64,000 nucleotides of DNA from Candidatus Omnitrophota bacterium (lineage in GTDB: Bacteria > Omnitrophota > Gorgyraeia > JABMRG01 > JAFGKX01). The translations under genes were made by a program, and so were the position numbers. Each line of letters opens with the position of its first letter. The first letter of the stretch is position 1. The notes beneath the pieces were generated by a model. That model ran no database searches, was not told the origin of the DNA, and saw only the letters and a program-made list of their open reading frames with translations. The stretch spans positions 70,921 to 134,920 of the forward strand of contig JAZDPX010000006.1 of assembly GCA_043797125.1 (NCBI GenBank), written 5' to 3'. Positions 1-61,726 of this stretch are shown here, in pieces.

Positions 1-602
1 TCTATCATAACCTGAGGCGTTCGCATATCCAGCTTCGCAAGCGTAGCTTCTATTAAAGAGAAATCCGAGGGCACGGATGTTACAATAAGGCTGTTTGTTC
101 TTTGGTCTATCAACACCTCGCCAAAAGTTTTCCCACCGCTGTCTTTGGCAAGCAACTTTTCCATGATAGACTTTATATCCCCGCCTTGCTGGCTGCCTGC
201 ACCGCCTGTGCCTGTATTGACCTTCGCATAATTAAGGTTATAGACTTTGGTAACCATCTTTATCCGCGGCGTAGTTGCCTCCTTTACGATAAAAACAGAG
301 CTGTTTGGCTTCTGCTCATAGGTAAGGTTGTTTGCGTCTATTATAGAATCCAAAGCATCTTGCACAGTAACGCCGTCTAAATAAAGGGTAAGTTGTTTGT
401 TCTCAATTTCCCTGGTTGCTACAAAGTTTAAGCCTGCCTGTTGAGAAAATATCTTAAGCACGTCTTTAAGCGCGGCTTGCTGAAAATCCATCGAAATAAG
501 CCTTTGTTCGTCTTGCGCGTAATTTAAATTCGGATAAAAGACAAAACAGATAACGCATAAAAATACAGTGAAACCCCTAATCCCACCGATTATATTCTTC
601 AT
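1..602 (-). CDS. pilQ: Secretin PilQ/GspD, N-terminal part; the gene continues past the window start
   Basis: Minus-strand translation from the ATG at 600-602 gives MKNIIGGIRGFTVFLCVICFVFYPNLNYAQDEQRLISMDFQQAALKDVLKIFSQQAGLNFV..., i.e. a signal peptide followed by a secretin N-domain pattern. The frame stays open to position 1. It sits immediately downstream of pilP. The ORF track does not list it because it is truncated. Confidence 0.7.
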   Translation of the reverse strand, partial: MKNIIGGIRGFTVFLCVICFVFYPNLNYAQDEQRLISMDFQQAALKDVLKIFSQQAGLNFVATREIENKQLTLYLDGVTVQDALDSIIDANNLTYEQKPNSSVFIVKEATTPRIKMVTKVYNLNYAKVNTGTGGAGSQQGGDIKSIMEKLLAKDSGGKTFGEVLIDQRTNSLIVTSVPSDFSLIEATLAKLDMRTPQVMI

Positions 603-626
603 TTTTTCTCCTCGCCCGCAGGCGGG

Positions 627-1118
627 CTACTTCTTTACGAAAAACTCTATACCTTTATATTCTACAGTTATCCCGTTTTTATCCACCGAAAGGAGCTTTG
701 CGCCTTCTATCTGGTCTCCAACTGAAAATACCTTGCCGTTTGCAATTACCTGCGGCCTATCTGAATTCCACACAAGCCCGCTTATGCTAATCTTGGGCGG
801 CTCGACACCTTGAGCCTTTAATAACTTTGTTTGCATATTCGGAAGCATGCCGACCATATAAACAAAAAACTGGTCTTTTAGAGGATCAATGGCATCAAGC
901 GCTTTATATTCTGCCTTTTTAAGCTCTGCTTTTATTTTCTCCAATGTCTTCTGTTCTTCTTCTATAAACGGTTGAGCCTGCGCGGAAGAGGCCGCTTCTA
1001 AAGTTTCGGGTGCGGGGGCTTTTTTAAAACTGCCTATAAACTTCGATGCCAAACCTAAAGCAAAAATAGGTAAAAGGACTATAAGTATTAGCTTTTCTGC
1101 TTTTTGTTTTTCCATCAT
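627..1118 (-). CDS. pilP: Pilus assembly protein PilP-like (the secretin-associated protein GspC/PilP)
   Basis: 163 aa with an N-terminal TM/signal segment and a Lys/Glu-rich linker. The C-terminal beta-domain reads ...ISGLVWNSDRPQVIANGKVFSVGDQIEGAKLLSVDKNGITVEYKG. It lies between pilO and the secretin. Confidence 0.55.
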   Translation of the reverse strand: MMEKQKAEKLILIVLLPIFALGLASKFIGSFKKAPAPETLEAASSAQAQPFIEEEQKTLEKIKAELKKAEYKALDAIDPLKDQFFVYMVGMLPNMQTKLLKAQGVEPPKISISGLVWNSDRPQVIANGKVFSVGDQIEGAKLLSVDKNGITVEYKGIEFFVKK

Positions 1119-1708
1119 TGCCTCGATGAATAAGTTTCCAATACAATATTTACTCCCGCAACCGCCGGAGCATTAATATCGGTGGAAGCCTGTTGAGATT
1201 CCCATCTTTGCGCTTGAGGCTGCGGGCCCGTAGCCTCGAAGCTAATGCTTTTTATCTCAATGCGCGGTTTCGCATTTTCGATTATTTCTACAAATTTACC
1301 AAGTTGATCATAGGTGCATTCTAACTGCATCGTTGTGGAAAATACTACATATTTATCTGCGCCGTACTCTCTTGTTGAACTTATAGACACAACCTTCACC
1401 TTCGACTCCGATGCCAGCTTTGATAGTTGCCTCCTGATTGCATCAGCATCTTTGCTTTGAAGAACGATATCTTCATAACCCTTACTTATACTGCCTAACT
1501 TGCTTATTTCTTCGCGTAGGTTATTTTTTGTCGTCTGTTCCTGGCACTGTTTATTATACTGCGCCACATTATTAGCTCCCTTTTGATATATGCCCTTATA
1601 ACATATAAAAAGTGCCAACACTAAAACAATGCCGCCAATTATATAGTCTCTTTGTTTTTGATCAATCGCGCTAAGAAATTCAAGAATTTTCATTTTTCCC
1701 CGCCGCAT
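1115..1708 (-). CDS. pilO: Pilus assembly protein PilO-like (related to GspM)
   Basis: 197 aa with one N-terminal TM helix (IIGGIVLVLALFICY), a coiled-coil, and then a periplasmic domain. The start overlaps the upstream pilM/N gene by 19 bp. Confidence 0.55.
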   Translation of the reverse strand: MRRGKMKILEFLSAIDQKQRDYIIGGIVLVLALFICYKGIYQKGANNVAQYNKQCQEQTTKNNLREEISKLGSISKGYEDIVLQSKDADAIRRQLSKLASESKVKVVSISSTREYGADKYVVFSTTMQLECTYDQLGKFVEIIENAKPRIEIKSISFEATGPQPQAQRWESQQASTDINAPAVAGVNIVLETYSSRQ

Positions 1709-3204
1709 TGAATTGTGTAATTTGTTACCTCATATGAAGCTGTATTGTATGAGCTAACATTTTCTTTCCTAATATCCCCGAGCTTGCAACTACTAAATCC
1801 CTGCATAAACAGCTTATCCTGTTTAAGCGTTTCTAAAAATTTATTTACAGCGTCTATCTGGTTTGTGCCTTCCTGAAAAAATGCCTTTCCTTTAAGCAGC
1901 ATTGTGATTTCAGCCTCAAAAAGATTCTCTGCCCTGACCATATTAATCCATACGCCTTGAGGCAAATCCGCGGCAATGCGATTCAGTTTATCTGTTAAAA
2001 ATATCTTTTTTGTAATCAATGATTTTAAAAACTCGATTGTTTTTGTTTCTTTGTCCTTTAATTGCAAAAGCCCGTCAATTCCAAGATTCCCAGTCTGCGC
2101 AGGCAGGGTCCTTGCTTTATCCATTACTGCGTTTAAGCGCGTCTTGGCGGAGATAACTGTTCCAATGCTGTAAAAAAGCGTAAGTAAAATAAGCGCTGCC
2201 GCAATGCCGGCTGCAACAAAAAGCTGCCTGCTTAACTTGAACTCTCTAACTCTTGTTTTAGGAGGCAGAATATTTACCGAATACACATCCTTTCCTAAGC
2301 CGACCATTGCCGCCCCTGCGGCAATAATCGCGCCGAGTGAATGAACCTTTTCGCCTTTAATTACTTTACTAAAATCCACTGTCTCTATAGCCATATTAAG
2401 GTCCTCTGCCAACTTTTTTCTTAAATCAGAGGCATCCTCTTTTGCGCATATGATTAATTTCTTAATTTCTTTTGACGCGGGTTTTCTCTTATAATAATCA
2501 AATGATAACCTCATCTCGCTGACTAATTTCTCTATAAGGGCGTCTTTGTCTTTGGGTATCGCAATACCCCTGTTTATGGTGGGGCAATTTTCTTCGATGA
2601 TGCTTATGCTTGCCACATCCTCCGCGACGCTAAGCTGCAGCAGGGCTATTGTATCCTTTTCTTTAAAAAACCTCTTGTTCTGATTAATAACCCTCAACAA
2701 GGCAAACGGAACAATATCCATTATGCCTGTTTTTAGCCCCGCGTCGGAAAATAGTTTTAATTCTGATTCTACGTCGGCTTTTTGCGCGGCAACAAAAAAT
2801 ACGCGCATTGTCTTGTGCTCTCTATTGGTATCTATTACTCTAAAATCCGAGTAAATATTCTCTATCTTAAAAGGAACATATTTTCTGGCCTCAAAATTAA
2901 TTGCCTGCCCTTGCTCTGATTTAGGCAAAAGAGGCATATCAAAATGCCTGATCATCACCCCTTCTTCAGACAGAACAGAATAAACGATATCAGAGCTTAT
3001 CTTAAGCTTGCCAATGGAGGATTTTATCGCTGCGACTATCTTGGCGCGCTGTTTTTGGTCGGAAGAAGGAACCTGTTCGTTTTGCGGCAGAGTAATATCC
3101 TCTCTTATGTGATCCACCAAGAAGGGCTTGTTAATAGCTCCTGTAACTGCCGCCACATCCACAAAATTTTTGCCTACATATATGCCGATGCCTTTGTTAG
3201 CCAT
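1690..3204 (-). CDS. pilM: PilM (actin-like ATPase fold) fused to PilN (TM + periplasmic) pilus assembly protein
   Basis: 504 aa. The N-terminal ~330 aa is a PilM/FtsA-like domain (GIGIYVGKNFVDVAAV...). It is followed by a TM helix (LFVAAGIAAALILLTLFYSIG) and a PilN-like C-terminal region. Confidence 0.6.
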   Translation of the reverse strand: MANKGIGIYVGKNFVDVAAVTGAINKPFLVDHIREDITLPQNEQVPSSDQKQRAKIVAAIKSSIGKLKISSDIVYSVLSEEGVMIRHFDMPLLPKSEQGQAINFEARKYVPFKIENIYSDFRVIDTNREHKTMRVFFVAAQKADVESELKLFSDAGLKTGIMDIVPFALLRVINQNKRFFKEKDTIALLQLSVAEDVASISIIEENCPTINRGIAIPKDKDALIEKLVSEMRLSFDYYKRKPASKEIKKLIICAKEDASDLRKKLAEDLNMAIETVDFSKVIKGEKVHSLGAIIAAGAAMVGLGKDVYSVNILPPKTRVREFKLSRQLFVAAGIAAALILLTLFYSIGTVISAKTRLNAVMDKARTLPAQTGNLGIDGLLQLKDKETKTIEFLKSLITKKIFLTDKLNRIAADLPQGVWINMVRAENLFEAEITMLLKGKAFFQEGTNQIDAVNKFLETLKQDKLFMQGFSSCKLGDIRKENVSSYNTASYEVTNYTIQCGGEK

Positions 3205-3613: not shown

Positions 3614-3997
3614 TTACGCTGCGCTTCTGATTGCTTCTGATGCCTTTTTTGCGCTCTTGAGTGTGAATGATTGAATATCGTAATAGCAGTGTTTAGAGGT
3701 GTACGAAAAATCTGCGTTGAAAGGGCGGCCCCATGAAGTCATATCTATTATTTTAAGTGGCGAAGTTTTCAGTAAAAAGTTTTTTATGCCCCTTCTGCCG
3801 TAAAAATCTGATCCGCTATTGATGTTTTTTGGATAGATTCCCCATGAAGCAGGCACTATTTTAAAAATGTCTTTCCAGGATTTTATTTCCAGCAATCTTT
3901 GCATATCTATTATATTTCCCGACTTTACATCCGCCATAAAGACAATGCCTTTGGATATTAAAATTCTAGATACATCATCCATAATAACCCTGGCCAT
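3614..3997 (-). CDS. Hypothetical protein
   Basis: 127-aa ORF with no recognisable motifs. It lies downstream of the LRP-protein pair. Confidence 0.3.
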   Translation of the reverse strand: MARVIMDDVSRILISKGIVFMADVKSGNIIDMQRLLEIKSWKDIFKIVPASWGIYPKNINSGSDFYGRRGIKNFLLKTSPLKIIDMTSWGRPFNADFSYTSKHCYYDIQSFTLKSAKKASEAIRSAA

Positions 3998-4033: not shown

Positions 4034-5443
4034 TTACTCCAAAAGCTTATTCTGTTCTTCATCAAGCGGAAACCACTGCTTCCATAAATCTACATAATCT
4101 TTTATTGAGTGCGCAAAATCCTGAATAGCCATTGAAAATACCACAAAATTAGCGGAATTATCTTCAAAAAGCCTTTTATCGATAGGCAAAACGTAATTGA
4201 TTATCTTCTTGGGGTCGCTTATTTCCTCATACAAATCCAACACTTTCTGGATAGGAAATTCTTTTCCAAGCATAGCTTTTTCTTCAATGCCGGATTTCAT
4301 TAATTCATCAATTTTTTTGGCTGCCCTATCGAGAATAAGAGTTGCATCTGCTTTAATAATCTCGACCCGCCCAGCTTCATCATGTGTAATTTCATGTTTA
4401 TCGACCAATTTCTTAAGCGCCCTCTCGGAAAGCCCCCTAGCCAATTCTATTAAAACAATCTTTCTGTATTTAATCGAACCATCGGGAAGCGTTTCTCTTA
4501 GCATCTTTTTCAAAGGCAGACCCGAGAAGTGGCCGCCGCCTAAAACAACCGCCGCGCCTTGCTGTTTTACCCTATTCGATGCCCGCATAATCTCTTGTTT
4601 TACTTTTTCAAAATGCGCATTCAGTCTCCTGCTATGCTCTGTATCCTGCGAAATCATTGATGGATAAATCTCTGCTGCGTAGTTGTGGGTTTCGGCAAGT
4701 ACGGGGCCCAAAACTTCAGGGCCTCTTTCACCTTTAACCCAAAGATTCAAGCCCTCTATGCCCCGCGCAAAATCATCCGGTAAAAAACGCGTTGGCTGCT
4801 CGATGGTAAAAAAACTTAATCCTAATCTATACAGAAAATATGCTCTGTCAAAATCTATGCAGCCCATTCTGTAAATTCTTTCAGCCAAAAAATAAAAAAC
4901 ATCGCTTGGCATGTATAAATCGAAAATTAAATATTCGTATAGGCCTCTTAATGTAAGATCCTCTGCAGCTCCGAGCGCTTCATCATAAGCCTCTATTGCT
5001 TGCTTAGTTTTCCCCTGTGAATGAAAATATATACTTTGCAATATGTGCATAATAGGCCACAAGTTAATTCTAATAATAGTAGTGGCTTCTTCCTGATTAA
5101 TTCCTCTTTTTAGCATTTCGTTAGCAATCATCGTATCTAAAAATTCCGGCATCTTTTCATCCTCTAAAAAGAAAAATTCATCATAGTATTCGGGGGCATA
5201 TTTTATTATCAGGGCCACCAGCTGCTTTCCATCCTTCCATTTAGATTTAAAATACGCTATATTTGCGGTTCTAATTGCAGCTTTATCACGGTTCGGATCC
5301 AGCTCAAAGCCTGTTTTTTCTCTATCTCTATCAAAATTAACTTTGCTGACAGGCCGCAATCCGTCTTCGGCAAAAGCAGGGACTGTCCCTATTTTTGATG
5401 TTGCCAATATAATGGCTATTGCTATGGCGAGGAGTTTTCCCAT
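4034..5443 (-). CDS. Exported hypothetical protein; member of the 'LRP' N-terminal motif family
   Basis: 469 aa. The N-terminus MGKLLAIAIAIILATSKIGTVPAFAEDGLRPVSK has a signal peptide followed by GLRPV. Confidence 0.5.
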   Translation of the reverse strand: MGKLLAIAIAIILATSKIGTVPAFAEDGLRPVSKVNFDRDREKTGFELDPNRDKAAIRTANIAYFKSKWKDGKQLVALIIKYAPEYYDEFFFLEDEKMPEFLDTMIANEMLKRGINQEEATTIIRINLWPIMHILQSIYFHSQGKTKQAIEAYDEALGAAEDLTLRGLYEYLIFDLYMPSDVFYFLAERIYRMGCIDFDRAYFLYRLGLSFFTIEQPTRFLPDDFARGIEGLNLWVKGERGPEVLGPVLAETHNYAAEIYPSMISQDTEHSRRLNAHFEKVKQEIMRASNRVKQQGAAVVLGGGHFSGLPLKKMLRETLPDGSIKYRKIVLIELARGLSERALKKLVDKHEITHDEAGRVEIIKADATLILDRAAKKIDELMKSGIEEKAMLGKEFPIQKVLDLYEEISDPKKIINYVLPIDKRLFEDNSANFVVFSMAIQDFAHSIKDYVDLWKQWFPLDEEQNKLLE

Positions 5444-5471
5444 TTTAACCTTTTGTTCTTATCTCAAAATG

Positions 5472-6332
5472 CTATGCGCTTGCTTCTATAGCTCCTGGAA
5501 GATCCAGCAAGGTGGCAGGGCAGGTAAAGTTATCCTGGCCGCCCATAAAAAACTTTAACACTATCGGCACCTCTATATCTGTTTCATCAACAAAGCCCAT
5601 TTTTAGCAAGAATTTTTTCATTTCACGAAAATTATCGCTTCTTCCCTGAGGTGCTCTCCACCTAAAATCCTCGTCAAAAATTATATATTGAAATTCATCT
5701 ATTTCAGGTGGAAATATATTTCCCCTCTTTGCTATAATCATAAGCGCTGCTAATGCCTCTGGGCCATAACCCTTTCTTGAGAAATCGTGAACATGCGCAG
5801 TATGCGGCCGACCATGAATAGAGTATCTAAAAAATACTGTATGTGGAGTATCTATAGAATACGTTAATATGCCATGGCCAACTATTTCCTGTTTTTTATT
5901 TTCAATTGACAAAACATATGCTTTATCAAAAAATTTCTCATCGGGATTCGTACTAAAACACTGGGCATAACCTGTAGTTTGTGGGAGTTCGGGACGCGCC
6001 TCAAAACAGATTACTCTCAATCTTCCTATTTTGAATATGATACATTCATCGGTGTTTAAGCTTTCTGGCGTATAGGCTTTTGCTAATATTGAGTCGTACT
6101 CATAGCCGGCATCTACCTTATCTCTGTAAGCTATATTTATCAAAGGCGTTACCTTCTTTCGCCTTTTTACTCTTTCAACGCTAAAATCCAATTCATGTAT
6201 AGATTTTTCTAAAGATGCGGAGATAATTTTGCTAGGTGTTTTTCCTTTTGTAGCTGCCGGACGCAGCGCAAGGCTCTGCTGTGGTAAAATTAGTGTTGTT
6301 AGTATTACGAATAGAACTAGTTTCTTTAGCAT
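5472..6332 (-). CDS. Exported hypothetical protein with the LRP motif; the C-terminal half may adopt a GNAT-like fold (weak)
   Basis: 286 aa. The signal peptide ...LPQQSLALRPAATKG is followed by the motif. The C-terminal region has RKGYGPEALAAL, which fits a Q/RxxGxG/A acetyl-CoA motif. Confidence 0.45.
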   Translation of the reverse strand: MLKKLVLFVILTTLILPQQSLALRPAATKGKTPSKIISASLEKSIHELDFSVERVKRRKKVTPLINIAYRDKVDAGYEYDSILAKAYTPESLNTDECIIFKIGRLRVICFEARPELPQTTGYAQCFSTNPDEKFFDKAYVLSIENKKQEIVGHGILTYSIDTPHTVFFRYSIHGRPHTAHVHDFSRKGYGPEALAALMIIAKRGNIFPPEIDEFQYIIFDEDFRWRAPQGRSDNFREMKKFLLKMGFVDETDIEVPIVLKFFMGGQDNFTCPATLLDLPGAIEASA

Positions 6333-11909: not shown

Positions 11910-12965
11910 TTAACCTGCTTGAGCCATTACGCTTTTGACAAAAAACATAATCGATGCCAATGCGGCATTATGCGTAATATGGACGATGATAGACGGAATA
12001 AGCGAGCCTGTCTTTTCCCTTAAATATGCCAAAAAGATGCCGAGGCCGAGTATCGGGAAAAATCCAATTATATTCGTATGAAGCGCGGAAAAAATCAACG
12101 CAGTAATAATTATAGAGGCTGCCGCGCTTAGAGTCTTTTTTAAGGCGGGATATAAAAACCCCCTGAAGAAAATCTCTTCTATTACAGGCCCGATAAAGGC
12201 CGCCATAACCGATACTACCATCAACACAGAGAATCTGCGCTCTTTAAATATCAATTCGTATATCGGTTGGGGTTGCGGCATATAGTTGAGCAGCTTGGCA
12301 ATAAATACTACGCATAAAAATGTCGCGGCCAAAACCGGCAAAAATGCCAAATATCCATAAACCGCTACACCTATATTTTTTGCAACGGCTTTTAATGAAA
12401 TGCCTAATGCGGTTATCTTCTGTTTATATTTTACCGATACAAAATAAATAACTACTATGAGCATAAGCATATCCATCAGCGTAGTATCCAAAATCATAGA
12501 TAGCCTTTCATCCAGTAAAGGTTTGTTAAAAAAGCCTGCCAGAACATTCCCAAGCGCAAAAACCAGATGATTAAAAAATAAAAATATTATTACAATCTTT
12601 ACAGCATCTTTCCAGCTCCAGAGGGCCGGATCTTCATCAAGCATCTTTGGAATTAAATCTTTGCCTTTTGCCTTATTAACAATGAAGGTGGCAAGAAAAA
12701 TAATCCCCAAAACAAACAATACAAATACAATGAAACAAATATAAGCGAACCTTGTGGCAATTTTAGGATTTTCAGCAAGCGCCTTTTCAAAAAGGCCTTT
12801 GTCTTCATCGAGCTGCTGTTTGAAACTCTGCGCCTTTTGCGGCCTGGCCTTCAAGCTTTGTTTAGGGTCTTGCGCATGAATAAAAATGCCGTGTGCCTGA
12901 ATAAGCAATATCCCTACAATCAGCCATACGTAGAATTTATTATTGGCGTAAGCCCCGCGTATCAT
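11910..12965 (-). CDS. CPBP-family (CAAX) intramembrane metalloprotease
   Basis: Multi-TM protein with an EEIFFRG...HITHNA motif arrangement. Confidence 0.65.
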
Positions 12966-24492: not shown

Positions 24493-25278
24493 TTACCTTC
24501 CTATAAAATAAAACAGCGCGGTAAACAGGCAGTTTGCCGCGATAATCAGGATAAACGCTGTTACAACGCTGGTTGTGGTGGAATATCCCACTCCTTCGGC
24601 GCCGCCTTCTGTTCTGAAACCCTCGTAACAGCCTATTATTGTTATAATAACGGCAAATATCGAACTTTTAAACAGGCCGCTAAACACATCCTTTAAATCC
24701 AAAGGATTGGTAGTCATATTCATATATATGTTCGGGCTTAAGTGAAGTTTAAAAACGCCCACAATATATCCGCCGAAAATTCCTATGCAATCCGCGTATA
24801 ATGTAAGCAAAGGCAGCATAATAAACAATGCCAGCATGCGCGGCACCACAAGATATTTTATCGGATTTGCCGCGAGCGTTTCCAACGCATCGATTTGCTC
24901 GGTGACCTTCATTGTCCCTAATTCGGCTGTTATCGAGGCCCCGACCCTGCCTGCAACTACAAGGCCTGTTAATACAGGCCCTAGCTCTCTGGTCATTGAC
25001 AACGCGACAAGGCTCGGGATGTATATCTCGGCCGAGACCCTTTGCATCTGATTGGCGCTCTGCAGCGCCAAAACCATACCTGTAAACAGGCTTGTTAAAA
25101 ATACTATCGGCAAAGAATCCACGCCTGTCCTTTTCATCTGCAAAAATATCTGCTTGATCTTTAATGGAGGGGTAAAGCACAAAAATAAAGTTCTAATAAA
25201 TAATAATGTTGCTCCGCCCATATAAGAAAGCAGGTCTTCAAACTTTCCTGCTGCCATTGATTTAATATTCTGTTTCAT
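24493..25278 (-). CDS. mlaE: MlaE ABC transporter permease
   Basis: Multi-TM permease of the MlaE/YrbE family. The start was chosen at the internal Met (MKQNIKSMAAG) to avoid a 40-bp overlap with clpC. Confidence 0.7.
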   Translation of the reverse strand: MKQNIKSMAAGKFEDLLSYMGGATLLFIRTLFLCFTPPLKIKQIFLQMKRTGVDSLPIVFLTSLFTGMVLALQSANQMQRVSAEIYIPSLVALSMTRELGPVLTGLVVAGRVGASITAELGTMKVTEQIDALETLAANPIKYLVVPRMLALFIMLPLLTLYADCIGIFGGYIVGVFKLHLSPNIYMNMTTNPLDLKDVFSGLFKSSIFAVIITIIGCYEGFRTEGGAEGVGYSTTTSVVTAFILIIAANCLFTALFYFIGR

Positions 25279-27722
25279 TTTTGCGCCTTTGTAAAGGTAA
25301 GCCTGTCGTTCTGGCAATCAATCTTTATCTTCTTGGCGTCTTTTATGCCGCCTGCTATAATCTCCTCTGCTAACGGATCCTCTAAGTGGCTTTGTATTGT
25401 CCTTTTTAAAGGCCTTGCACCGTATATTTTATCAAAACCCTTTTCAATTAAAAAGTCTTTTGCCTTTTTGGTAAGCTCTATGTCTATATTCTGCTCGGCT
25501 AACCTCACCTTTACATAACCGACTTCTATCTCTATGATGCTTTGCAAATCTTCCATGGTAAGCGGATGAAATACTATTGTTTCATCTACCCTGTTTAGAA
25601 ATTCCGGCTTAAATGTCTTTTTCAAAACATCAAGCACTTGTTCTTTTGCCTGTTCGTAGGTTACGTCCTCTTTTTGGGCCTTAAACCCGAGAGCGCCCTG
25701 TTTCTTCCATAAATCAGCGCCGACATTAGAGGTCATAATAACAACGGTATTTCTGAAGTTTACTCTCCTGCCGTATGAATCAGTAAGTCTTCCTTCCTCA
25801 AATATCTGCAATAACATATTAAAAACATCCGGGTGCGCCTTTTCAATTTCATCCAGCAAAACCACCGAATAAGGCTTTCGCCTTACCTTTTCCGTAAGCT
25901 GGCCTCCTTCTTCATACCCTACATATCCCGGAGGCGCGCCAACTAATCTTGATACGTTGAATTTTTCCATATATTCGGACATATCCAGTTGTATCAGGGC
26001 CTCTTCATTGCCGAATAAAAATTCGGCTAAAACACGCGCAAGCAAAGTCTTTCCCACTCCTGTGGGGCCAAGGAATAAAAACGAACCTACCGGGCGTCGT
26101 TGATCCTTTATTCCGGCTCTGGAGCGTCGGACTGCCCTGGCTATGGCCTTTATCGCTTCTTCCTGGCCGATTATGCGCCTGTGCATTTCTTCTTCCATCT
26201 TAAGCAGCTTCTCGGATTCTTTTTCCTCAAGGCGAACGAGCGGGATATTGGTCCATTTAGAGACTATACGCGCGACTTCTTCAACGCCGACTTCAGGGAT
26301 GCTTTCTTTGGTTGTCTCTTTCCATTTATTTTTTTGTTTTTCTATTTCTATTTTTGCCTGCCTCTCTTTATCCCTAATTTTGGCAGCCTGCTCAAAATCC
26401 TGGGCCCTTACAGCCAGCTCTTTTTCCTTCCTTATCTCTTCAAGTTTTTTCTCTAAATCTTTTACATCAGGAGGGGCTGTCATCACATCAAGCCTGGCGC
26501 GCGAACCTGCCTCATCTATGACATCCACTGCCTTATCCGGAAGAAACCTGTCGCTTATGTATCTGTCTGAAAGCTTAGCCGCCGCATCTATTGCAGCATC
26601 TGTAATCTTGATTTTATGATGCGCCTCATACCTGCTTCTTAAGCCCTTTAATATTTCCACTGTCTCAAGCACTGTTGGAGGATTGACCATTATGGTCTGG
26701 AATCTTCTTTCCAGCGCCGCGTCTTTTTCTATAAATTTCCTGTATTCATCAAGCGTGGTTGCGCCTATGCATTGTATCTCCCCGCGGGAAAGCGCGGGTT
26801 TTAATATGTTTGAAGCGTCAATGGCGCCTTCCGCGCCGCCGGCCCCCACTAATGTGTGCAATTCGTCGATAAAAACTATTATATTCGCGGAGCGTTTTAT
26901 TTCATCCATTACAGCCTTTATTCTTTCTTCAAATTGCCCGCGATATTTTGTTCCTGCAACCATAAGCGCAAGATCAAGCGTAATCACTCTTTTGTCGCGC
27001 AGGACCTCAGGGATATCGCTGACTATTATCTTCTGCGCCAGGCCTTCAACAATTGCGGTTTTTCCTACGCCGGCCTCGCCTAATAACACGGGATTATTTT
27101 TGGTGCGGCGGCTTAATATCTGTATAACCCTTTCTATTTCTTCTTTTCTTCCGATAACAGGATCGAGTTTATTGTCTTTGGCAAGCTCGGTTAAGTCCCT
27201 GCCAAAGGCATCCAGCGCCGGAGTCTTGCTTTTTTCTTTTGGCTTTTTTGAAACATCGGGTTGCTCAATTCCCGCTCCGGGAATGGCTGAACCCAGCAAA
27301 GACATGATCTCAACCCTGACCCTTTCAAGGTCAAGGCCTAAATTCAGCAGCACCTGGCTGGCGATACCTTCGCCTTCCCTTAGCAAGCCTAAAAGCAGGT
27401 GCTCTGTCCCGATATAATTATGCCCGAGATGCCTGGCCTCATCCATGGCAAGCTCTATCACCTTTTTCGCTTTTGGCGTAAATGGTATATCGCCGGATAT
27501 TACCGTTGACGGGCCCGGCTTTACCAATTTTTCCACTTCAAATCTTATGACATCCAGGCTTAAGCCTAAATTCTGCAATACGGCTGCCGCTACGCCTTCG
27601 CCTTCCTTTATCAGGCCCATAAGCAAATGCTCGGTCCCGATATAATCGTGATTTAACCTCTTTGCTTCGTCCTTCGCCAGAATAACAACTTTTCTGGCCC
27701 GTTCCGTAAATCTGTTAAACAT
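25275..27722 (-). CDS. clpC: ATP-dependent Clp protease ATP-binding subunit ClpC
   Basis: Two Clp_N repeats, two AAA+ modules (GEAGVGKT; GPTGVGKT) and a UVR motif between them; 815 aa. Confidence 0.9.
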   Translation of the reverse strand: MFNRFTERARKVVILAKDEAKRLNHDYIGTEHLLMGLIKEGEGVAAAVLQNLGLSLDVIRFEVEKLVKPGPSTVISGDIPFTPKAKKVIELAMDEARHLGHNYIGTEHLLLGLLREGEGIASQVLLNLGLDLERVRVEIMSLLGSAIPGAGIEQPDVSKKPKEKSKTPALDAFGRDLTELAKDNKLDPVIGRKEEIERVIQILSRRTKNNPVLLGEAGVGKTAIVEGLAQKIIVSDIPEVLRDKRVITLDLALMVAGTKYRGQFEERIKAVMDEIKRSANIIVFIDELHTLVGAGGAEGAIDASNILKPALSRGEIQCIGATTLDEYRKFIEKDAALERRFQTIMVNPPTVLETVEILKGLRSRYEAHHKIKITDAAIDAAAKLSDRYISDRFLPDKAVDVIDEAGSRARLDVMTAPPDVKDLEKKLEEIRKEKELAVRAQDFEQAAKIRDKERQAKIEIEKQKNKWKETTKESIPEVGVEEVARIVSKWTNIPLVRLEEKESEKLLKMEEEMHRRIIGQEEAIKAIARAVRRSRAGIKDQRRPVGSFLFLGPTGVGKTLLARVLAEFLFGNEEALIQLDMSEYMEKFNVSRLVGAPPGYVGYEEGGQLTEKVRRKPYSVVLLDEIEKAHPDVFNMLLQIFEEGRLTDSYGRRVNFRNTVVIMTSNVGADLWKKQGALGFKAQKEDVTYEQAKEQVLDVLKKTFKPEFLNRVDETIVFHPLTMEDLQSIIEIEVGYVKVRLAEQNIDIELTKKAKDFLIEKGFDKIYGARPLKRTIQSHLEDPLAEEIIAGGIKDAKKIKIDCQNDRLTFTKAQK

Positions 27723-27759: not shown

Positions 27760-27880
27760 AAACTCATTCTTTTGCTTTGCGCAGATTAGCACAGATTAAA
27801 GGATGCAAGATGATCACAGATATTTTCCTAAAGAATCTGCGATCATCTGTTTCTTTTGATCTGCGATTATCTGTGTAATC
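27760..27880. repeat. Inverted-repeat cluster (GATCACAGAT / ATCTGTGATC, GATCTGCGATTATCTGTG) between mcsB and clpC
   Basis: CAGATTAGCACAGATTAAAGGATGCAAGATGATCACAGATATTTTCCTAAAGAATCTGCGATCATCTGTTTCTTTTGATCTGCGATTATCTGTGTAATCATC. This is the position where a CtsR-type operator would sit in Firmicutes, but it is not a CtsR heptad. Confidence 0.5.
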
Positions 27881-28934
27881 ATCTATCTTTTTTTAACTTA
27901 GCTCTGATTATCTTTGCCCTTTCAATATCTCTTTCTGAAGCTGATAGTTTTTTCTTTTTTAATTTTTGCAAATGCGCCGGTTGAATAATAATAAAAAGCT
28001 CGTTAAGCACCGAGCTGTCTACATCGGTTATTACATTTGTCTCAACGCCTAATCTAACCAGAGAGAGAAGCTCAAGCGCTTCCTCGCTGCTTATAACATG
28101 GGCATTTTTAAATGTAGCGTAAGCCCTTGAAATCCTGTCCTCGACAACTTCTCTTTTCTTGGCCATAAGAAAATTGCGGGAATTTTCTTCCTGGGATATC
28201 AGCTGCTGTATGACCCTTTCCAAGCTATTTATTATATCCTGCTCTCTGTGCCCGAGTGTAACCTGATTTGACACCTGGAAAAAGTTGCCGCTGGCCTGCG
28301 TGCCCTCTCCGAAAAAACCGCGCACGGTAAGCCCGAGCCTTGATATGGCCTTTATAACTTCTTTAATCTGGCCTGTCATGACTATTGCCGGAAGATGCAT
28401 CATTACCGAAGCGCGCATGCCTGTGCCGACATTGGTGGGGCATGCGGTTAAATACCCTAATTGTTCTGAATAGGCAAAATCAAAATTTTTCTCCAAATCT
28501 TTATCAAAACCTTCCAGGATATCCCATGCGCCTGTTAAATTAAGGCCCGCCTGAAGGACTTGAATTCTTAAATGGTCTTCCTCGTTTATCATAATACTTA
28601 TTATCTCTTTCTCGCTTATAAACACGGCCTTATGCGCCGTGTCCTGAAGATGCTCTCTGCTTACCATGTGCCTTTCAAGAAGAAATTGCCTGTCTATCGG
28701 GCTTACCTTATCCATCTCTAGGTAAAGAGAGTTTTTCATGAAATTCAAAGAAGAGATTTTCTCTTTAGCAATGGTTTTTATCTTTTCTTTTACAGCGTCA
28801 TCCGCCCAGTTAAAAAAAGCGAAACCCTTTATATTCCTTGCCAGCCTGACCCTGCTGGATACAACAACTCCGGCGCCCGGGCTTGCACCTTTATACCATT
28901 CACCGGTCTGATTTAGCAGATCATCGAGCGTCAT
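27879..28934 (-). CDS. mcsB: Protein-arginine kinase McsB
   Basis: ATP:guanido phosphotransferase signature (CPTNVGTGMRASV). Confidence 0.85.
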   Translation of the reverse strand: MTLDDLLNQTGEWYKGASPGAGVVVSSRVRLARNIKGFAFFNWADDAVKEKIKTIAKEKISSLNFMKNSLYLEMDKVSPIDRQFLLERHMVSREHLQDTAHKAVFISEKEIISIMINEEDHLRIQVLQAGLNLTGAWDILEGFDKDLEKNFDFAYSEQLGYLTACPTNVGTGMRASVMMHLPAIVMTGQIKEVIKAISRLGLTVRGFFGEGTQASGNFFQVSNQVTLGHREQDIINSLERVIQQLISQEENSRNFLMAKKREVVEDRISRAYATFKNAHVISSEEALELLSLVRLGVETNVITDVDSSVLNELFIIIQPAHLQKLKKKKLSASERDIERAKIIRAKLKKDR

Positions 28935-29455
28935 TTAGGTTCCTTCTCAAGATCTCTTATTCTATCCCTTAGCGCTGCTGCCTTTTCATAATCTTCCGAT
29001 CTAATAGCCTGTTGCAGTTTTTGTTTTAAGTGCTGGATCTTTTCATAGCTTGTCAACTCCTTAATTTCCTCAGGGTGTTCGGTTTCACCGCCGGCTGGCA
29101 ATGCCTTGGGCTCTTTGCCTGTATGATGGGTTGAGCCATGTATGTTCTTGAGCAAAGGCAGCAATGCCTTGTTAAATGCCATGTAACAATCGCTGCAGCC
29201 GAGCCTTCCTATTTTTCTGAAATCAGAGTAAGTCATGCCGCAGGAGGGGCATTTTAAATATTGCTCCTTTTCCTCGGCTAAGGTCGGAAAATCCACTAAA
29301 CCGGAAAGCAAATCAGCAATGCCGAAACTCTGCTGCGCCTTAATACTCTCTGCTTCCGCGCAGCTCTGGCACACATGCAGCTCGCTTGCCTCGCCGTTGA
29401 CTATTTCCGTTATGTGTATCGTGGCTTCTTTTTTATGGCATATATCGCATATCAT
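28931..29455 (-). CDS. mcsA: McsA, activator of protein-arginine kinase
   Basis: CxxC zinc fingers are present at the N-terminus and in the middle (MICDICHKK...CQSC...CPSC...CSDC). The C-terminal UVR motif reads YEKAAALRDRIRDLE. Confidence 0.8.
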   Translation of the reverse strand: MICDICHKKEATIHITEIVNGEASELHVCQSCAEAESIKAQQSFGIADLLSGLVDFPTLAEEKEQYLKCPSCGMTYSDFRKIGRLGCSDCYMAFNKALLPLLKNIHGSTHHTGKEPKALPAGGETEHPEEIKELTSYEKIQHLKQKLQQAIRSEDYEKAAALRDRIRDLEKEPK

Positions 29456-33957: not shown

Positions 33958-34626
33958 TTACTCTTTTGCTATTTTTTGGGCTAAGTTATAGAGGGCGGTG
34001 TTTGCTAAAGCTAAAACTTTCTTTTTAACACGGCGGGAAAAATACTCGCGCTCTGTCTTTGTAAATTTTTCTCCTTTAAGCCTTTTCAGAAACAGCTCTT
34101 TTTGTTTCTTTGAAAACAGCTGCGATAAAGCATATTCAAGGTCAAACTCATCCTTCATTTGCGTATATTCTGTCAAACTGGCTTTTTTCTCCTTAAAGTA
34201 GCTTTCAAAAACATTAACTACTCTTACCGAAGACAGTTTCAATGTCGTCCCTTTTAAGTCATCTTTGCTCTTAAAGCTTTTAAGAAATGCCTCAAATGCC
34301 TTTTTGTTAAAAAAATCCATATTATACAACTGATCGACAAAAGACAATTTTAACCCCAGATAATCATACAGCGCAAGCGACATAACAACTAAGCCTTCAA
34401 AACTGCTTTTTTCAGGCTTTGCCTTTAAATATTTTTTGGCCGCTGTGTAATCGAAGAGCCCTTTTTCCATGCTGTTTACAAGCAACAACGGAAAACCTTC
34501 ATGCAGGCGGGAGTCTTTGCTCTTTACAACTTCCGCCAATGTCTTATTCGCATTGGTGGTTTCCCATTTTCCCAGCAAAGGATATCCTAATTCTCTCAAG
34601 TTTTTTAATAGCTCTTGCTTTTTCAT
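33958..34626 (-). CDS. Hypothetical protein; probable partner of the upstream nucleotidyltransferase in a two-gene module
   Basis: 222 aa, Lys-rich, with a 4-bp overlap with the NTase gene. No recognisable catalytic motif. Confidence 0.35.
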   Translation of the reverse strand: MKKQELLKNLRELGYPLLGKWETTNANKTLAEVVKSKDSRLHEGFPLLLVNSMEKGLFDYTAAKKYLKAKPEKSSFEGLVVMSLALYDYLGLKLSFVDQLYNMDFFNKKAFEAFLKSFKSKDDLKGTTLKLSSVRVVNVFESYFKEKKASLTEYTQMKDEFDLEYALSQLFSKKQKELFLKRLKGEKFTKTEREYFSRRVKKKVLALANTALYNLAQKIAKE

Positions 34627-35207
34627 ATATTAAACCCCTCTTTTTCTAAAATATGCAAAAAAAGCCTGAAATTCCTTTTATTCCTTTCATCAGAAACATC
34701 ATAGGAAGAGGTTTCATAAAATCTTTCTTTTAATTTCTCGATATCTATCTCTTTGCGCTTGGCTTTAAATAAAACCAAGCAATCTTCCATATCCACAGAA
34801 GTAAATCTAAAAATTTTACTTATCAGTAAATCGTAATAATTCAAAATCCCTAAATATATATACGAAAACTCTTTAAATAAAGTATTGTTGCCCTCTTCCA
34901 ACGAAGATTCAAGTAGTTCTGTTGTAAATATTTTCTTTCCAACAAATAAATCGAACTCAAAACCCTTACCCCTTCTCCACGATGTGCCGGTTTTCGGTTC
35001 ATACCCTAATCCTTCTAAGGCTTTTATCAAATATTTATACTCTGCTTCATCAGGTATAAGAAAATCAACGTCTTTCGTAGATTCCTTTAGATCCAATAAA
35101 GTCAGCGCTGTCCCGCCGCACGCTACAAGACACACCTTTCTCTTTATATGGCTATTCCATATAGAGAGTATATCCAGTAGTTGTGCCTTGTCTATTCTAT
35201 ATTCCAT
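34623..35207 (-). CDS. Nucleotidyltransferase, AbiEii/DUF1814-like
   Basis: ...VCLVACGGTALTLLDLKESTKDVDFLIPDE resembles the GGTAL ... DxD NTase motif. TACAA/TTGTA palindromes lie directly upstream. Confidence 0.45.
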   Translation of the reverse strand: MEYRIDKAQLLDILSIWNSHIKRKVCLVACGGTALTLLDLKESTKDVDFLIPDEAEYKYLIKALEGLGYEPKTGTSWRRGKGFEFDLFVGKKIFTTELLESSLEEGNNTLFKEFSYIYLGILNYYDLLISKIFRFTSVDMEDCLVLFKAKRKEIDIEKLKERFYETSSYDVSDERNKRNFRLFLHILEKEGFNI

Positions 35208-35213
35208 ATTATA

Positions 35214-35250
35214 TACAATTTATTGTATCTATTTATACAACTCCTTGTAT
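35214..35250. promoter_or_regulatory. Tandem palindromic operator-like sites (TACAATTTATTGTA; ATACAACTCCTTGTAT) upstream of the AbiEii-like NTase gene
   Basis: Two TACAA…TTGTA dyads lie within 45 bp of the start codon at 35207. Confidence 0.5.
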
Positions 35251-35319
35251 TTAAATATACAACACAAGCACCAAAAAGTCAAGGGTTTTCTATGCTCTAT
35301 GCACTATGCTCTTTGCTGA

Positions 35320-37437
35320 TTACGCTGCCTGGTCTAAGGCCTGGAGGGATTTTTTCTCTTTTATCTGCTCGAGGACATTAAGGAAAGATGCCTTTGTATC
35401 AATTTCATACTGCTTTTTGAATTTGATTTTCTGGAGCGTATCAACTAATTTTTGCGGCAGTTTATCCGCTTGTTCCTTCAAATCTATCCATTCAAGGGTT
35501 TTTAAATAATATTTATATAACTTGGAATCCTCGGACGTAATATCTCCATGGAGAACTTTCGTAATTTCAGAATCTTCAAAATCATCCGCTGTTAAATCTT
35601 TATAAATATATCCTGTGTTTCCGTCAAGCGTAATAGCCTCTCCCGCATTAAGTCTTGCGATTTCTTTTTTGTCATTATCTTGTATACTAAGGATGCCTTT
35701 TTCTGGTATCTCTCCGTATAACACAACATAAGGTATTCGTTTATTACTCTTTCTAATACCCTCTGCTACGTGGTCAAAGAGCCCCCCCCTCAAAGATATA
35801 ATTCCCGGAATATTATATTTCAAAATGCGTTCCTGGTATGGACCGATCATTGCTTCTGCTATGTGTGCGGTTACGTCTCTGCCGCTGCTTTCGGCTTCAT
35901 TAATCAAAAGCATTAAACAAATATGATCAGGTAATAAATCCATTCCCTCATTCTTTTTCGCGCCAATTCCTTCAAAAGGGTTTGGAATAACCGGGATGCA
36001 GCCTTTTAATAGTAATTCGTTTCTATCATCTCCTATGCTAACCTCAGCGGTCGCTATGCCCGGAAAAAGCGACGCGCCCCAAGCGATTGCCTTACCCTGA
36101 CTTTCTTTTTTAACAACAGGCTGCTCAAAGTAACTCTTAAGCCACTCCAAATCAGCTAATGAGATTTTTTCAAAAGCCTCTGATTCGTTCAGTATGCCTT
36201 CTTCTGCTAAATCAACTAAAGTGCGCGCTTGCGCCAATGGCGTTGTTGTATCCAAAGCATCTCGTGTCTGAACAATCCATAATTTGCCGGCAGATACAAC
36301 TATTTCAACATGCTGAATGCTCTTTTGATGTGCTTCTAATATTTTTATATAATTCAGGAGTTGTTTATAAATTTCAGGATGGCTATTTTCTAAATCCTTA
36401 TATTGCTTTTCTATTTCTCGTCTTACTCCTCTGGCCCCGTCTCCTAACTCAGCATATGGGGTAACGATAGAACTTCCGTCTACTGCAAATTCATAGTTTC
36501 CAACAATCCCCGGCTCTCCTGTAAAAGGGCTTCTGGTGCATAAGACGCCGCTTAACGACTTACCATCGTTTATATTGCCGAAAACCTGCCATTGGACATT
36601 AATTCCTCCTGTCAACTCATCGGTGTCCGTGTATATAAATGTATACTTGCCCCTGTTTTTTGTATATGAATTAGCGACCGCTGTTATTGCCTCTTTTAAT
36701 TGCTGCTTTGGATCCGAGAAATCGTGTTTAGTCATCTTTTTATATTCTTCTTCCACTTTTAATAATACCTCTTGTAATTTTTCAAAATTGATACGTTTTT
36801 TAAGCCCTTTACAAGCAGCGCAATTTAAATCACTATAATAGATTTTGTTGTTAGTTAATATTTTAAAAATTGAATCCGATTCTCTGTGGTTATCAACACA
36901 ACTTATGTAATCATAAATATATCTGATATATTCCAAATATGCCTGGTAACGGTCTCCTAATATCTGCGCATATGCATCAATATTGCTTCTATGCAGCCCT
37001 ACTTTATTTATTGTACGATATTCACCTGGTTTTGATTTTACAGCGCCCGCCCTGACTGCCAAAAGCATAAAATTATCCGAAGAACCATATTTTAATTTTT
37101 TACCTTCTTGCCGGGATGCTTTTTCCTCAATCCTTACCAGCCCACTTTCTATGTGTGGCCATAATGCTTGGTTAATTTCGTGATTTTCAATAATATCTTC
37201 TACCTCTTCATACGGTATCGTAAAACCCGCAGGCACAGGAAGCCCTAGATTAGTCATCTCCGCCAAATTAGCGCCTTTATTCCCTAAAATGTCCTTCATG
37301 TCTATTGAGCCGTCTGTATGGTCGCCGCCAAAATCATAGACGCGCTTGCCGCATTCTTCTGCTATCGGGCGCAAGGCATAACCCGGCTGAGACATCGCCA
37401 ACACAATCACTATTAATATCGTTATTATTTTTCTCAT
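35320..37437 (-). CDS. Signal-peptide-bearing PPDK/PEP-synthase-like dikinase (ATP-grasp plus phosphohistidine swivel domain) that lacks the PEP/pyruvate TIM-barrel domain; LRP motif family
   Basis: The N-terminus is MRKIITILIVIVLAMSQPGYALRPIAE. GNKGANLAEMTNLGLPVPAGFTI, AVRAGA...KPG and INVQWQVFGN match PPDK N-terminal motifs. RGGLFDHVAEG...AITLDGNTGYIY matches the PPDK phosphohistidine segment, with the His retained. The protein ends about 80 aa later. Confidence 0.6.
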   Translation of the reverse strand: MRKIITILIVIVLAMSQPGYALRPIAEECGKRVYDFGGDHTDGSIDMKDILGNKGANLAEMTNLGLPVPAGFTIPYEEVEDIIENHEINQALWPHIESGLVRIEEKASRQEGKKLKYGSSDNFMLLAVRAGAVKSKPGEYRTINKVGLHRSNIDAYAQILGDRYQAYLEYIRYIYDYISCVDNHRESDSIFKILTNNKIYYSDLNCAACKGLKKRINFEKLQEVLLKVEEEYKKMTKHDFSDPKQQLKEAITAVANSYTKNRGKYTFIYTDTDELTGGINVQWQVFGNINDGKSLSGVLCTRSPFTGEPGIVGNYEFAVDGSSIVTPYAELGDGARGVRREIEKQYKDLENSHPEIYKQLLNYIKILEAHQKSIQHVEIVVSAGKLWIVQTRDALDTTTPLAQARTLVDLAEEGILNESEAFEKISLADLEWLKSYFEQPVVKKESQGKAIAWGASLFPGIATAEVSIGDDRNELLLKGCIPVIPNPFEGIGAKKNEGMDLLPDHICLMLLINEAESSGRDVTAHIAEAMIGPYQERILKYNIPGIISLRGGLFDHVAEGIRKSNKRIPYVVLYGEIPEKGILSIQDNDKKEIARLNAGEAITLDGNTGYIYKDLTADDFEDSEITKVLHGDITSEDSKLYKYYLKTLEWIDLKEQADKLPQKLVDTLQKIKFKKQYEIDTKASFLNVLEQIKEKKSLQALDQAA

Positions 37438-37480
37438 GTTAATCTGGCCTTTCTAACCAGGTTGGATAATACAAACAATA

Positions 37481-38980: not shown

Positions 38981-39139
38981 AAATTCTTTATAAAAGGTTT
39001 ATAGAGATAAATATTTTAACACTCTGCTCCTGCTAAGTCAAGAAAATATCGGACTTTTTTTGAATTAGATCCCCGCTCCCCGTTTTCACGGGGACAAGTT
39101 TCGCGGGGATGACAAAAGAAGCTTTGTGTGCGTTGCCAA

Positions 39140-39372
39140 AATTATTTTTTACAAGGTGAGGCTTTTGCAATAGCACATTACAATTTGCTTAAGGCCTGTG
39201 GCAAGCCGAGCAGGGCTTGCGAGGCCGAGCGGGCATGGTTCGCCCTTGTTTCCATACAGGCGAGAGCGAAGGCCGAGGTCAGAGCACAAAAATCCACGCT
39301 GGGGATTTTTGTGCGTCCCTGCGAGAATTGCCACAAGCCTTAAGCAAAACAGCATCAAGTATTGCAAAAGCC
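39140..39372. repeat. Family D long-hairpin element, copy 3, upstream of the AsmA-like gene
   Basis: Termini GTGAGGCTTTTGCAATAGCAC ... GTATTGCAAAAGCCGAGCC. The interior inverted repeat is GCTTAAGGCCTGTGGCAA / TTGCCACAAGCCTTAAGC. Confidence 0.55.
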
Positions 39373-39430
39373 GAGCCTATGCCCCGAGGCTTTTTGTTGT
39401 TGCAGGTTTGCGCATTGCGGGGTATAATTT

Positions 39431-50194: not shown

Positions 50195-50232
50195 AACAAC
50201 GATTCGGTAAACGGTACCGGTTTTACGCTGCC
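50195..50232. repeat. Family J shared 3' element (…CGATTCGGTAAACGGTACCGGTTTTACGC[T/C]GCC) at the end of the 998-aa gene
   Basis: The 30-bp core is identical to 53421-53450. It contains the CGGTACCG palindrome and supplies the …AA* stop. Confidence 0.7.
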
Positions 50233-56263: not shown

Positions 56264-56299
56264 CTTACCCTCCCTGTCTCGCCCGCAGGCGGGCTTTTG

Positions 56300-59348: not shown

Positions 59349-59352
59349 AAGA

Positions 59353-61687: not shown

Positions 61688-61726
61688 TTCTTCTCTTCTG
61701 TTTCTGCGTAAGTATATCGACTCGGA

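Follow-up and report, generated by a model that had tools for sequence, protein, structure and literature searches.

Five unrelated proteins of a Candidatus Omnitrophota genome carry an LRP motif behind Sec-type leader sequences: a candidate bipartite leader

The residues at the start of a mature protein can set its destination after export by the Sec pathway, as in the lipoprotein export signal (LES) that follows the lipobox cysteine in Bacteroidota, and in the +2 rule of Lol avoidance. In eukaryotes, the RxLR(-dEER) motif of oomycetes and the PEXEL motif of Plasmodium (RxLxE/Q/D) are host-targeting motifs. To our knowledge, linear and portable post-Sec signals are rare in diderm bacteria, and the cargo of type II secretion systems (T2SS) has no known linear signal. 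Here we describe a short motif, Leu-Arg-Pro (LRP), near the N-termini of five proteins, p1 to p5, encoded in a 64-kb stretch (hereafter the window) of a 159,799-bp contig from one NCBI metagenome-assembled genome (MAG) labelled Candidatus Omnitrophota. All five share the same N-terminal pattern, i.e., [A/C/G]-L-R-P-[V/I/A]-[S/A] behind a signal peptide of the Sec type. An N-terminal signal of the LRP type was not met with in literature searches, and the tag has apparently not been described before. The reading that we tentatively prefer is that of a lineage-restricted bipartite leader, in which a cleavable Sec signal is followed by an LR(V)P tag that would lie at the start of the mature protein, or close to it, and serve post-Sec sorting or processing.

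The five genes are as follows, the arrow marking the predicted cleavage site:
4034-5443, minus strand: p1, a 469-residue orphan; leader MGKLLAIAIAIILATSKIGTVPAFA↓EDG-LRP-VSK; LRP codons TTGCGGCCT at 5351-5359
5472-6332, minus strand: p2, a 286-residue orphan; leader MLKKLVLFVILTTLILPQQSLA↓LRP-AATK; LRP codons CTGCGTCCG at 6258-6266
35320-37437, minus strand: p3, a 705-residue truncated enzyme resembling pyruvate phosphate dikinase (PPDK-like); leader MRKIITILIVIVLAMSQPGYA↓LRP-IAEE; LRP codons at 37366-37374
37481-38980, minus strand: p4, a 499-residue HExxH protein of the DUF6866/Sfum_1244 family; leader MKRYYPITIIFIILCITIIMPNEAFC↓LRP-VASD; LRP codons at 38894-38902
50223-53219, minus strand: p5, a 998-residue orphan HExxH protein; leader MKILIKRISSLLLATVFLSNQLAFQKSQICTRTNSDSSA-LRP-ISF; LRP codons at 53094-53102

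The window has a G+C content of 41.8%, and nearly every gene in it lies on the minus strand. The five open reading frames (ORFs) were present on that strand at the coordinates of a preliminary description, which had reported the shared motif, and the N-termini quoted there matched. LRP begins at residue 29 in p1, 23 in p2, 22 in p3, 27 in p4 and 40 in p5; the N-terminus of p1 (NCBI locus tag V2A72_00640) reads MGKLLAIAIAIILATSKIGTVPAFAEDG-LRP-VS. The NCBI start codon is identical for four of the five genes. The fifth is p4, annotated as V2A72_00800 with 480 amino acids from Met20, which cuts off the hydrophobic leader; its 499-residue form resembles the other four leaders. Since a Shine-Dalgarno-like AAAGG, AAGGG or TGGAG lies ahead of the upstream ATG in four of the five genes, the long gene forms are supported.

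The motif is more frequent than composition predicts: among the 19,940 residues encoded in the window, LRP was observed 10 times against 3.2 expected, and half of these occurrences fall at the post-signal N-terminal position. In the 34 residues after an N-terminal hydrophobic segment, it was the commonest tripeptide (5 of 22 window proteins), the runners-up occurring in 3 proteins each; one of the latter was ALR, i.e., part of the same motif. A search for the extended pattern, a hydrophobic stretch followed by [ACGS]Y?LR.?P[VIAM], gave 5 matches in the window, all of them the N-termini of p1 to p5, and a single match in 1.49 Mb of comparison DNA, which proved to be a PPDK-like orthologue (P0004, described below). 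It is to be noted that 44 lysS loci, mostly from phyla other than Omnitrophota, served mainly as a negative control. Composition, tripeptide census and control DNA together rule out a chance origin of the motif. Six other window proteins have good signal peptides and no LRP, encoded at 3-602 (secretin-like), 11910-12965, 47862-49037 (a lipoprotein), 55778-56263, 58326-59348 and 60749-61687.

The anatomy of the five leaders is that of signal peptides, comprising a K/R-rich n-region, a hydrophobic core of 12-17 residues, a c-region containing Pro, Gln, Asn or Gly, and small residues at -3/-1. Application of the -3/-1 rule for signal peptidase I (SPase I) gave sites at AFA↓E in p1, SLA↓L in p2, GYA↓L in p3 and AFC↓L in p4, while p5 was ambiguous. 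In p2, p3 and p4 the rule places the site directly before the motif (SLA↓LRP, GYA↓LRP and AFC↓LRP), so that LRP would occupy mature residues 1-3. In p1 the best site, AFA↓EDGLRP, is 3 residues upstream of LRP, and in p5 LRP lies about 22 residues past the hydrophobic core. The earlier claim that the motif sits at the predicted signal-peptidase site in four of the five thus holds for three, namely p2, p3 and p4, and fails for p1 and p5. In p5 and in the orthologues P0003 and P0004, the motif is located 13-22 residues past the core, following a shared NQ(E)L[AV][FY]..I[CS] stretch. To judge from the residues present, cores of 12-17 residues and sites of the type SLA↓, GYA↓, AFC↓ and AFA↓ are more in keeping with cleavable signal peptides than with membrane anchors.

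Ordinary Sec/SPase I signal peptides, whose uncharged h-region spans about 7-15 residues, are like those of p1 to p5 in their n-h-c anatomy but have no conserved residues after the cleavage site. In comparison with the described sorting signals (lipobox, Tat, prepilin, YSIRK and RxLR/PEXEL) none corresponded, in agreement with the preliminary description, which had recognised no known signal. A lipobox has [LVI][ASTVI][GAS]-Cys at the cleavage site; Cys precedes LRP in p4 only, where E-A-F-C has Phe at -1, and the other four proteins have A or G. A true lipobox, LVSGC, is found elsewhere in the window (47862-49037). The twin-arginine translocation (Tat) signal, S/T-R-R-x-F-L-K in the n-region, is ruled out by the n-regions MGK, MLKK, MRK, MKRYY and MKILIKR, none of which contains RR. 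In type IV prepilins a short basic leader is cut at G↓F/M-T-L-x-E, and the hydrophobic segment comes behind the cut; in p1 to p5 this segment precedes the motif. Genuine pseudopilins are encoded in the window (59353-60752), with FTLIE, FTLLE and MTLME. Signals of the YSIRK / KxYKxGKxW type were likewise rejected, since p1 to p5 have no such n-region motif, their conserved element follows the h-region, and no NCBIfam N-terminal match was found. The C-termini of p1 to p5 (..KLLE, ..EASA, ..DQAA, ..GAAA and ..AQAA) have no transmembrane (TM) segment and no Pfam or NCBIfam match, which excludes C-terminal sorting by LPXTG, PEP-CTERM, GlyGly-CTERM or the C-terminal domain of type IX secretion; signals of these kinds combine a motif with a TM helix and a basic tail or, in the last case, form a beta-sandwich.

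In architecture, the closest parallels are the signals named at the outset. LES and the Lol +2 rule are like LRP in that a few residues at the mature start are involved and are portable between cargos, but they operate on lipidated Cys N-termini, whereas four of the five proteins here have no Cys, and the sequence LRP resembles neither. The RxLR and PEXEL proteins also combine a signal peptide, a short motif within the next ~1-40 residues, unrelated effector domains and location in variable genome regions; they differ in sequence, domain of life and secretory pathway, and the analogy is therefore one of architecture only. By sequence, RxLR/PEXEL proteins have, in the ~40-60 residues that follow the signal peptide, R-x-L-R or R-x-L-x-[EQD], and the contexts found here (DG-LRP, LA-LRP, YA-LRP, FC-LRP and SA-LRP) have neither Arg at -2 from Leu nor an acidic residue at +2.

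The proteins that carry the motif are otherwise unrelated, as had been proposed. All-against-all BLASTP of p1 to p5 detected no similarity between the mature parts; the sole leader match was between p2 and p4 (residues 6-48, E=0.003), the remaining pairs scoring E>0.1. The 5' DNA of the genes showed no similarity apart from a motif-centred match between p1 and p3, and Pfam content differs among the five. The preliminary interpretation hence stands in part: the motif is short, portable and non-random on unrelated proteins, while the alternative offered there, the leader of a lineage-specific paralogous family with a conserved N-terminal domain, was rejected, as there is no similarity past the leader, the 5' DNA is dissimilar, and the homologues of two of the proteins are leaderless.

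The earlier labels of p3 as PPDK-like and of p4 and p5 as HExxH proteins agreed with family searches, motif reading and, for p3, structure comparison. In p3, an ATP-grasp nucleotide-binding domain and a swivel phospho-His domain are present; the catalytic His556 is kept and, like the ATP-grasp invariants, is common to 26 true PPDKs. The phosphoenolpyruvate/pyruvate TIM-barrel domain is absent, the match to TIGR01828 covering positions 2-407 only at 226 bits against a cut-off of 843, so that p3 is PPDK-like and not a PPDK. An AlphaFold2 (AF2) model of p3 with a predicted local distance difference test (pLDDT) score of 73 matches PPDK structures over ~615 columns; residues 12-22 are of low confidence, LRP (22-24) lies at the end of that stretch, and the confident domain starts from about residue 31. 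In p4, HENGH is located at residue 296, and the family assignment came from Pfam/NCBIfam. No close relative of p4 was found in the database search, and a full HMMER search returned 30 remote relatives, mostly of 350-410 amino acids, which start at about residue 63 of p4 and have neither leader nor hydrophobic N-terminus. In p5, HESGH is located at residue 736. No family or relative of p1, p2 or p5 was found in Pfam, NCBIfam, PDB, PADLOC or PHROG searches, and each of the three is a singleton when 15 billion proteins are compared at 90% identity; p5 had no match in JGI metagenome contigs. Together with p4, they had no match in IMG/VR and no homologues at the 44 lysS loci. A single-sequence AF2 model of p2 (pLDDT 41) was too poor to use. 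The PPDK-like alignment search of IMG/VR matched true cytoplasmic PPDKs only. True PPDKs begin straight at the KxVYxFGG motif, with no leader. Since the homologues of p4 and true PPDKs are leaderless, a leader of ~25-60 residues has been added onto domains that are normally cytoplasmic; on these alignments the LRP leader is an add-on, outside the catalytic fold.

Conservation of the motif could be followed in three metagenomic proteins with the truncated architecture of p3, namely P0003, P0004 and P0005, whose identities to p3 are 45%, 38% and 35%, respectively, as read from alignment A1. The N-termini of the first two read ...LAYSSDISC-LRVP-IEP and ...LVYPQDICY-LRVP-MGV. The stretch between the motif and the catalytic domain is unalignable among these orthologues, and P0003 carries an insert of ~170 residues there; as far as the alignment goes, L-R-(V)-P is the sole maintained element of the N-terminal region in P0003 and P0004 compared with p3. 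P0004 is encoded directly upstream of lysS, while p3 in the window is parted from lysS by a nucleotidyltransferase (NTase) module only, and the lysS N-termini of the two loci are 39% identical. As P0004 keeps the lysS neighbourhood of p3, P0003 and P0004 can be taken as true orthologues in a fairly distant relative. The motif of P0004 is encoded by CTG-AGA-GTC-CCT, in contrast to YTG-CGN-CCN in the window genes, and this change of Arg codon points to selection on the peptide and not on the DNA.

The genes lie in accessory regions of the genome. The closest relative contig, L013, whose lysS is 73% identical, has the order RNase PH - RdgB - AsmA-like <-> lysS - lolE - lolD. The gap between the AsmA-like gene and lysS is ~240 nt in L013 (3506-3760), whereas in the window this interval is taken up by p4, p3 and the two genes of a DUF6036 NTase pair (33958-38980). 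The p5 gene is bracketed by two copies of a 38-nt direct repeat, 36/38 identical, which enclose a 3222-bp segment consisting of p5 and its promoter only. The features concerned are:
33958-35207, minus strand: DUF6036 nucleotidyltransferase (34623-35207, weak AbiEii match) and partner ORF (33958-34626), absent from L013
49082-50099, minus strand: NTase/HEPN pair just downstream of p5, matching the PADLOC candidate defence pair PDC-M05 A/B
50198-50235, no strand: 38-nt direct repeat copy 1, holding the last codons and stop of p5
53420-53457, no strand: 38-nt direct repeat copy 2, holding the last codons and stop of the MFS_3 gene (53445-54644)

An exact 25-mer of the repeat, AACCGGTACCGTTTACCGAATCGTT, occurs twice against 0 expected; the repeat is absent from IMG/VR, and there is no recombinase inside the p5 cassette. 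By its appearance, the p5 segment is a cassette that site-specific recombination has placed behind the 3' end of the MFS gene. The p5 block is located just 3' of smpB and the transfer-messenger RNA (tmRNA) gene (54797-55233, minus strand), the latter being the only Rfam match in the window, and such a flank is a classical island integration region. Absence of the p3/p4 block from L013, and the repeats around p5 near the tmRNA gene, identify the LRP genes as accessory. The statement that these genes occur as adjacent pairs or next to NTase modules was borne out by the p2-p1 pair, the p4-p3 pair with the DUF6036 NTase, and p5 with the NTase/HEPN pair. The lysS promoter, TTGACAG..TATTACTATATAAT, is kept at the block boundary in the window and L013, and in a more distant relative, L012, a PPDK-like gene still adjoins lysS. 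Between p4 and the AsmA-like gene lies a G+C-rich 450-nt intergenic region (38981-39430) of nested hairpin-forming repeats (..CCCCGCGAAACTTGTCCCCGTGAAAACGGGGAGCGGGGATC..). L013 has nothing that corresponds to this region, and Rfam gave no match for it.

One further ORF concerns the gene model of p1:
3614-3997, minus strand: 127-residue ORF in the frame of p1, ending ..RSAA, annotated separately by NCBI

Between it and p1 there are one TAA and 36 in-frame stop-free nucleotides, and its ATG has no Shine-Dalgarno-like sequence. The two may be a single gene, with this ORF as the C-terminal part of p1 (the stop being due to sequencing error or pseudogene formation, or being read through), and the fusion product would have 609 amino acids, ending ..RSAA. 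The p2-p1-(3614-3997) genes are directly upstream of an operon of pilM, pilO, gspB-like and secretin-like genes (3-3204), and a second T2SS-like cluster is located at 55778-63980. The minus-strand gene at 11910-12965 encodes a CPBP/Rce1-like intramembrane protease (Pfam PF02517, E=9e-22), ending ..MAQAG; such an enzyme could conceivably process leaders or tails, the sole link being its presence in the same window.

A side observation concerns the other end of the proteins. Ala-Ala ends were found in 5 of 64 window proteins against 0.4 expected, i.e., in p3 (..DQAA), p4 (..GAAA), p5 (..AQAA), the 3614-3997 ORF (..RSAA) and the MFS protein (..MRAA), with stop codons at 35320-35322, 37481-37483, 50223-50225, 3614-3616 and 53445-53447, respectively; p2 ends ..EASA. 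The last 12 nt of p3 and p5 are identical (CAGGCAGCGTAA), and the predicted tmRNA tag, unusually long with 26 amino acids (ADTIRAKVMEVVPVNTGMVSMMPLAA), ends in ..MPLAA. On account of the Ala-Ala ends, this tag end and the common 12 nt, the LRP proteins might mimic the end of the ssrA degron; another possibility is a recombination core that their genes have in common at the 3' end. The C-termini of the orthologues P0004 and P0005 are not AA. Elsewhere in the window, a McsA/McsB-like protein-arginine-kinase pair adjoins a ClpC-like gene (27879-29455 and 25275-27722), as assigned by reading of the sequence alone.

Giant multi-TM 'polyproteins' have been described in Omnitrophota and relatives and tied to predation (West-Roberts et al., preprint 10.1101/2023.11.21.568195; 10.64898/2026.06.07.730766); T2SS-like loci adjoin predation-associated giant genes in this phylum, which has been proposed to be predatory or parasitic (10.1101/2023.11.21.568195). 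In GTDB genomes, the p3 family was found at a single locus, as a module in an ORF of >4113 amino acids (L001 5-12346; L001 is contig CAZEUO010000003.1 of a MAG labelled Planctomycetales), where the PPDK-like module is 33% identical to p3. The modules of this ORF are hexapeptide-transferase-like (acetyltransferase-like), LysM-YkuD, HAD and PPDK-like, and are parted by a repeated hydrophobic spacer such as LPFMTGFGVEWLMVLMSGGLFFAMVGMSRQKK. Presence of the PPDK-like module inside this giant ORF places the p3-type enzyme in the multi-TM polyprotein toolkit. The likeness to the window is that each enzyme module of L001 is preceded by a hydrophobic spacer, while p3 is a stand-alone gene with a hydrophobic leader; the differences are that L001 has its own spacer repeat, and that the window genes are separate and not in mutual frame. 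The spacer, in at least 8 copies, has three parts in the order h-P-[FLM]-x-x-G-x-G-x-E, a run of ~17 hydrophobic residues that closes with GMV/AMAG, and a polar/basic stretch, as in LPFMTG-FGVEWLMVLMSGGLFFAMVGM-SRQKK. By its sequence it recalls a tripartite sorting signal of the LPXTG type, here internal and repeated, and it could mark processing sites of the polyprotein.

Other explanations of the motif have to be weighed against a bipartite leader. That LRP has no role after cleavage, being either the preferred +1 to +3 context of SPase I or a relic of an ancestral leader recombined onto new cargo, is somewhat unlikely. Such an origin would suit the three of five motifs that lie exactly at a canonical -3/-1 site and the accessory, mobile-looking nature of the genes (the p3/p4 block absent in L013, p5 between 38-nt repeats); the codon pair YTG-CGN, used in 5/5 motifs versus 1/5 internal LRPs, could also reflect common descent. 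However, it does not account for the six window proteins that have good signal peptides without LRP, or for a motif that in p1, p5, P0003 and P0004 is displaced from the likeliest cleavage site. The leaders are, moreover, otherwise dissimilar, except for the p2-p4 match and the motif-centred p1-p3 DNA match, and the motif has outlived the divergence around it in P0003 and P0004, at 36-45% identity and, in P0004, with a different Arg codon. The codon usage just mentioned could also indicate a nucleic-acid element, such as a recombination site, regulatory RNA or translational pause site, that reads as Leu-Arg-Pro by accident, which we regard as very improbable. All five motifs are indeed YTG-CGN-CCN, despite a share of 64-70% for AGR among Arg codons, CGG is found in 3/5 motifs against 5% of Arg codons overall (a weak signal), the 3'-end DNA is conserved between p3 and p5, and direct repeats surround p5. 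Nevertheless, YTG-CGN is a generally favoured Leu-Arg pair in the window (25/86 LR pairs), and the codon bias at the motif, though real, is weak and partly explained by this preference. Counted over all contexts, the window has 21 copies of the 9-mer YTGCGNCCN, third codon positions vary, the orthologue P0004 has the divergent codons given above, there is no flanking DNA similarity, and no significant RNA structure was found at the motif (z -1.5 to +0.5).

It is unlikely that the hydrophobic segments remain uncleaved and tether the enzymes to the inner membrane, with L-R-P as a juxtamembrane helix cap in which Arg snorkels and Pro acts as breaker; in a variant of this arrangement, the catalytic domains may stay on the cytoplasmic side, with access to ATP. 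This would accommodate p3 as a predicted ATP-dependent phospho-His enzyme, the homologous L001 module flanked by TM spacers, the hydrophobic stretch of 17-18 residues in p4, and the many membrane-anchored, cytoplasmic-domain architectures reported in Omnitrophota (10.64898/2026.06.07.730766). The cores, however, are mostly of 12-13 residues and too short for a stable TM helix, and the positive n-regions (MRK, MLKK, MKR, MKILIKR) predict an N-in/C-out topology. The c-regions, with Pro/Gly and small residues at -3/-1, are typical of cleaved signals, and the motif of p5 and the orthologues, 13-22 residues from the core, is not juxtamembrane.

In the bipartite-leader reading, p1 to p5 would form a lineage-restricted, accessory set of Sec-exported enzymes with a common two-part leader. 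The first part would be an ordinary cleavable signal peptide, and the second a tag of consensus [A/C/G]-L-R-(V)-P-[V/I/A/M]-[S/A], joined to domains that are otherwise of cytoplasmic type. Cleavage by signal peptidase would leave the tag at +1 to +3 (p2, p3, p4) or within the first ~17 mature residues (p1, p5 and the orthologues). After Sec export, a second-step factor would then read the tag, either for onward sorting, across or onto the outer membrane and possibly toward a prey cell, or for a second trimming that exposes or protects the LRP N-terminus. The nature of the cargo argues for this reading, being enzyme-like and partly in need of cytoplasmic cofactors, as in p3 with its ATP-grasp invariants and phospho-His. 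Several points weigh on the other side. The cleavage sites were judged solely by a rule of thumb, the -3/-1 rule applied manually, and the distance from core to LRP ranges from 6 to 22 residues. The motif is known from one MAG and two metagenomic orthologues; the more distant P0005 (...VAQGM-LAPP-GF) has no LRP, and the motif is absent from the spacers and the PPDK-like module of L001. No recognition or processing partner for the tag was identified, the T2SS-like genes and the CPBP protease being connected with the LRP genes by proximity only. Lastly, a periplasmic location would be a paradox for an ATP-dependent cargo, unless the proteins travel further, to another cell.

Considering that the cargo is enzyme-like and ATP-dependent and that a predatory lifestyle has been proposed for the phylum, a delivery role is conceivable. 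By analogy, LR(V)P could be a bacterial RxLR/PEXEL-like tag that takes polymorphic enzymes (kinase-like, metalloprotease-like and others) from the periplasm into or onto prey, possibly by a T2SS-like or type IV pilus-like route, although we consider this improbable.

If LR(V)P is a true signal, it would provide an easy way to list, from sequence, the secreted or effector proteins of a phylum that is uncultured, ultra-small and putatively predatory, and would point to a recognition or processing factor not yet described. The tag also marks a paradox, in that ATP- or cofactor-dependent enzyme domains carry export signals, and the same paradox is met in the giant multi-TM proteins of Omnitrophota. 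Even if inert, the tag would still be a useful marker of the mobile accessory gene pool in this lineage.

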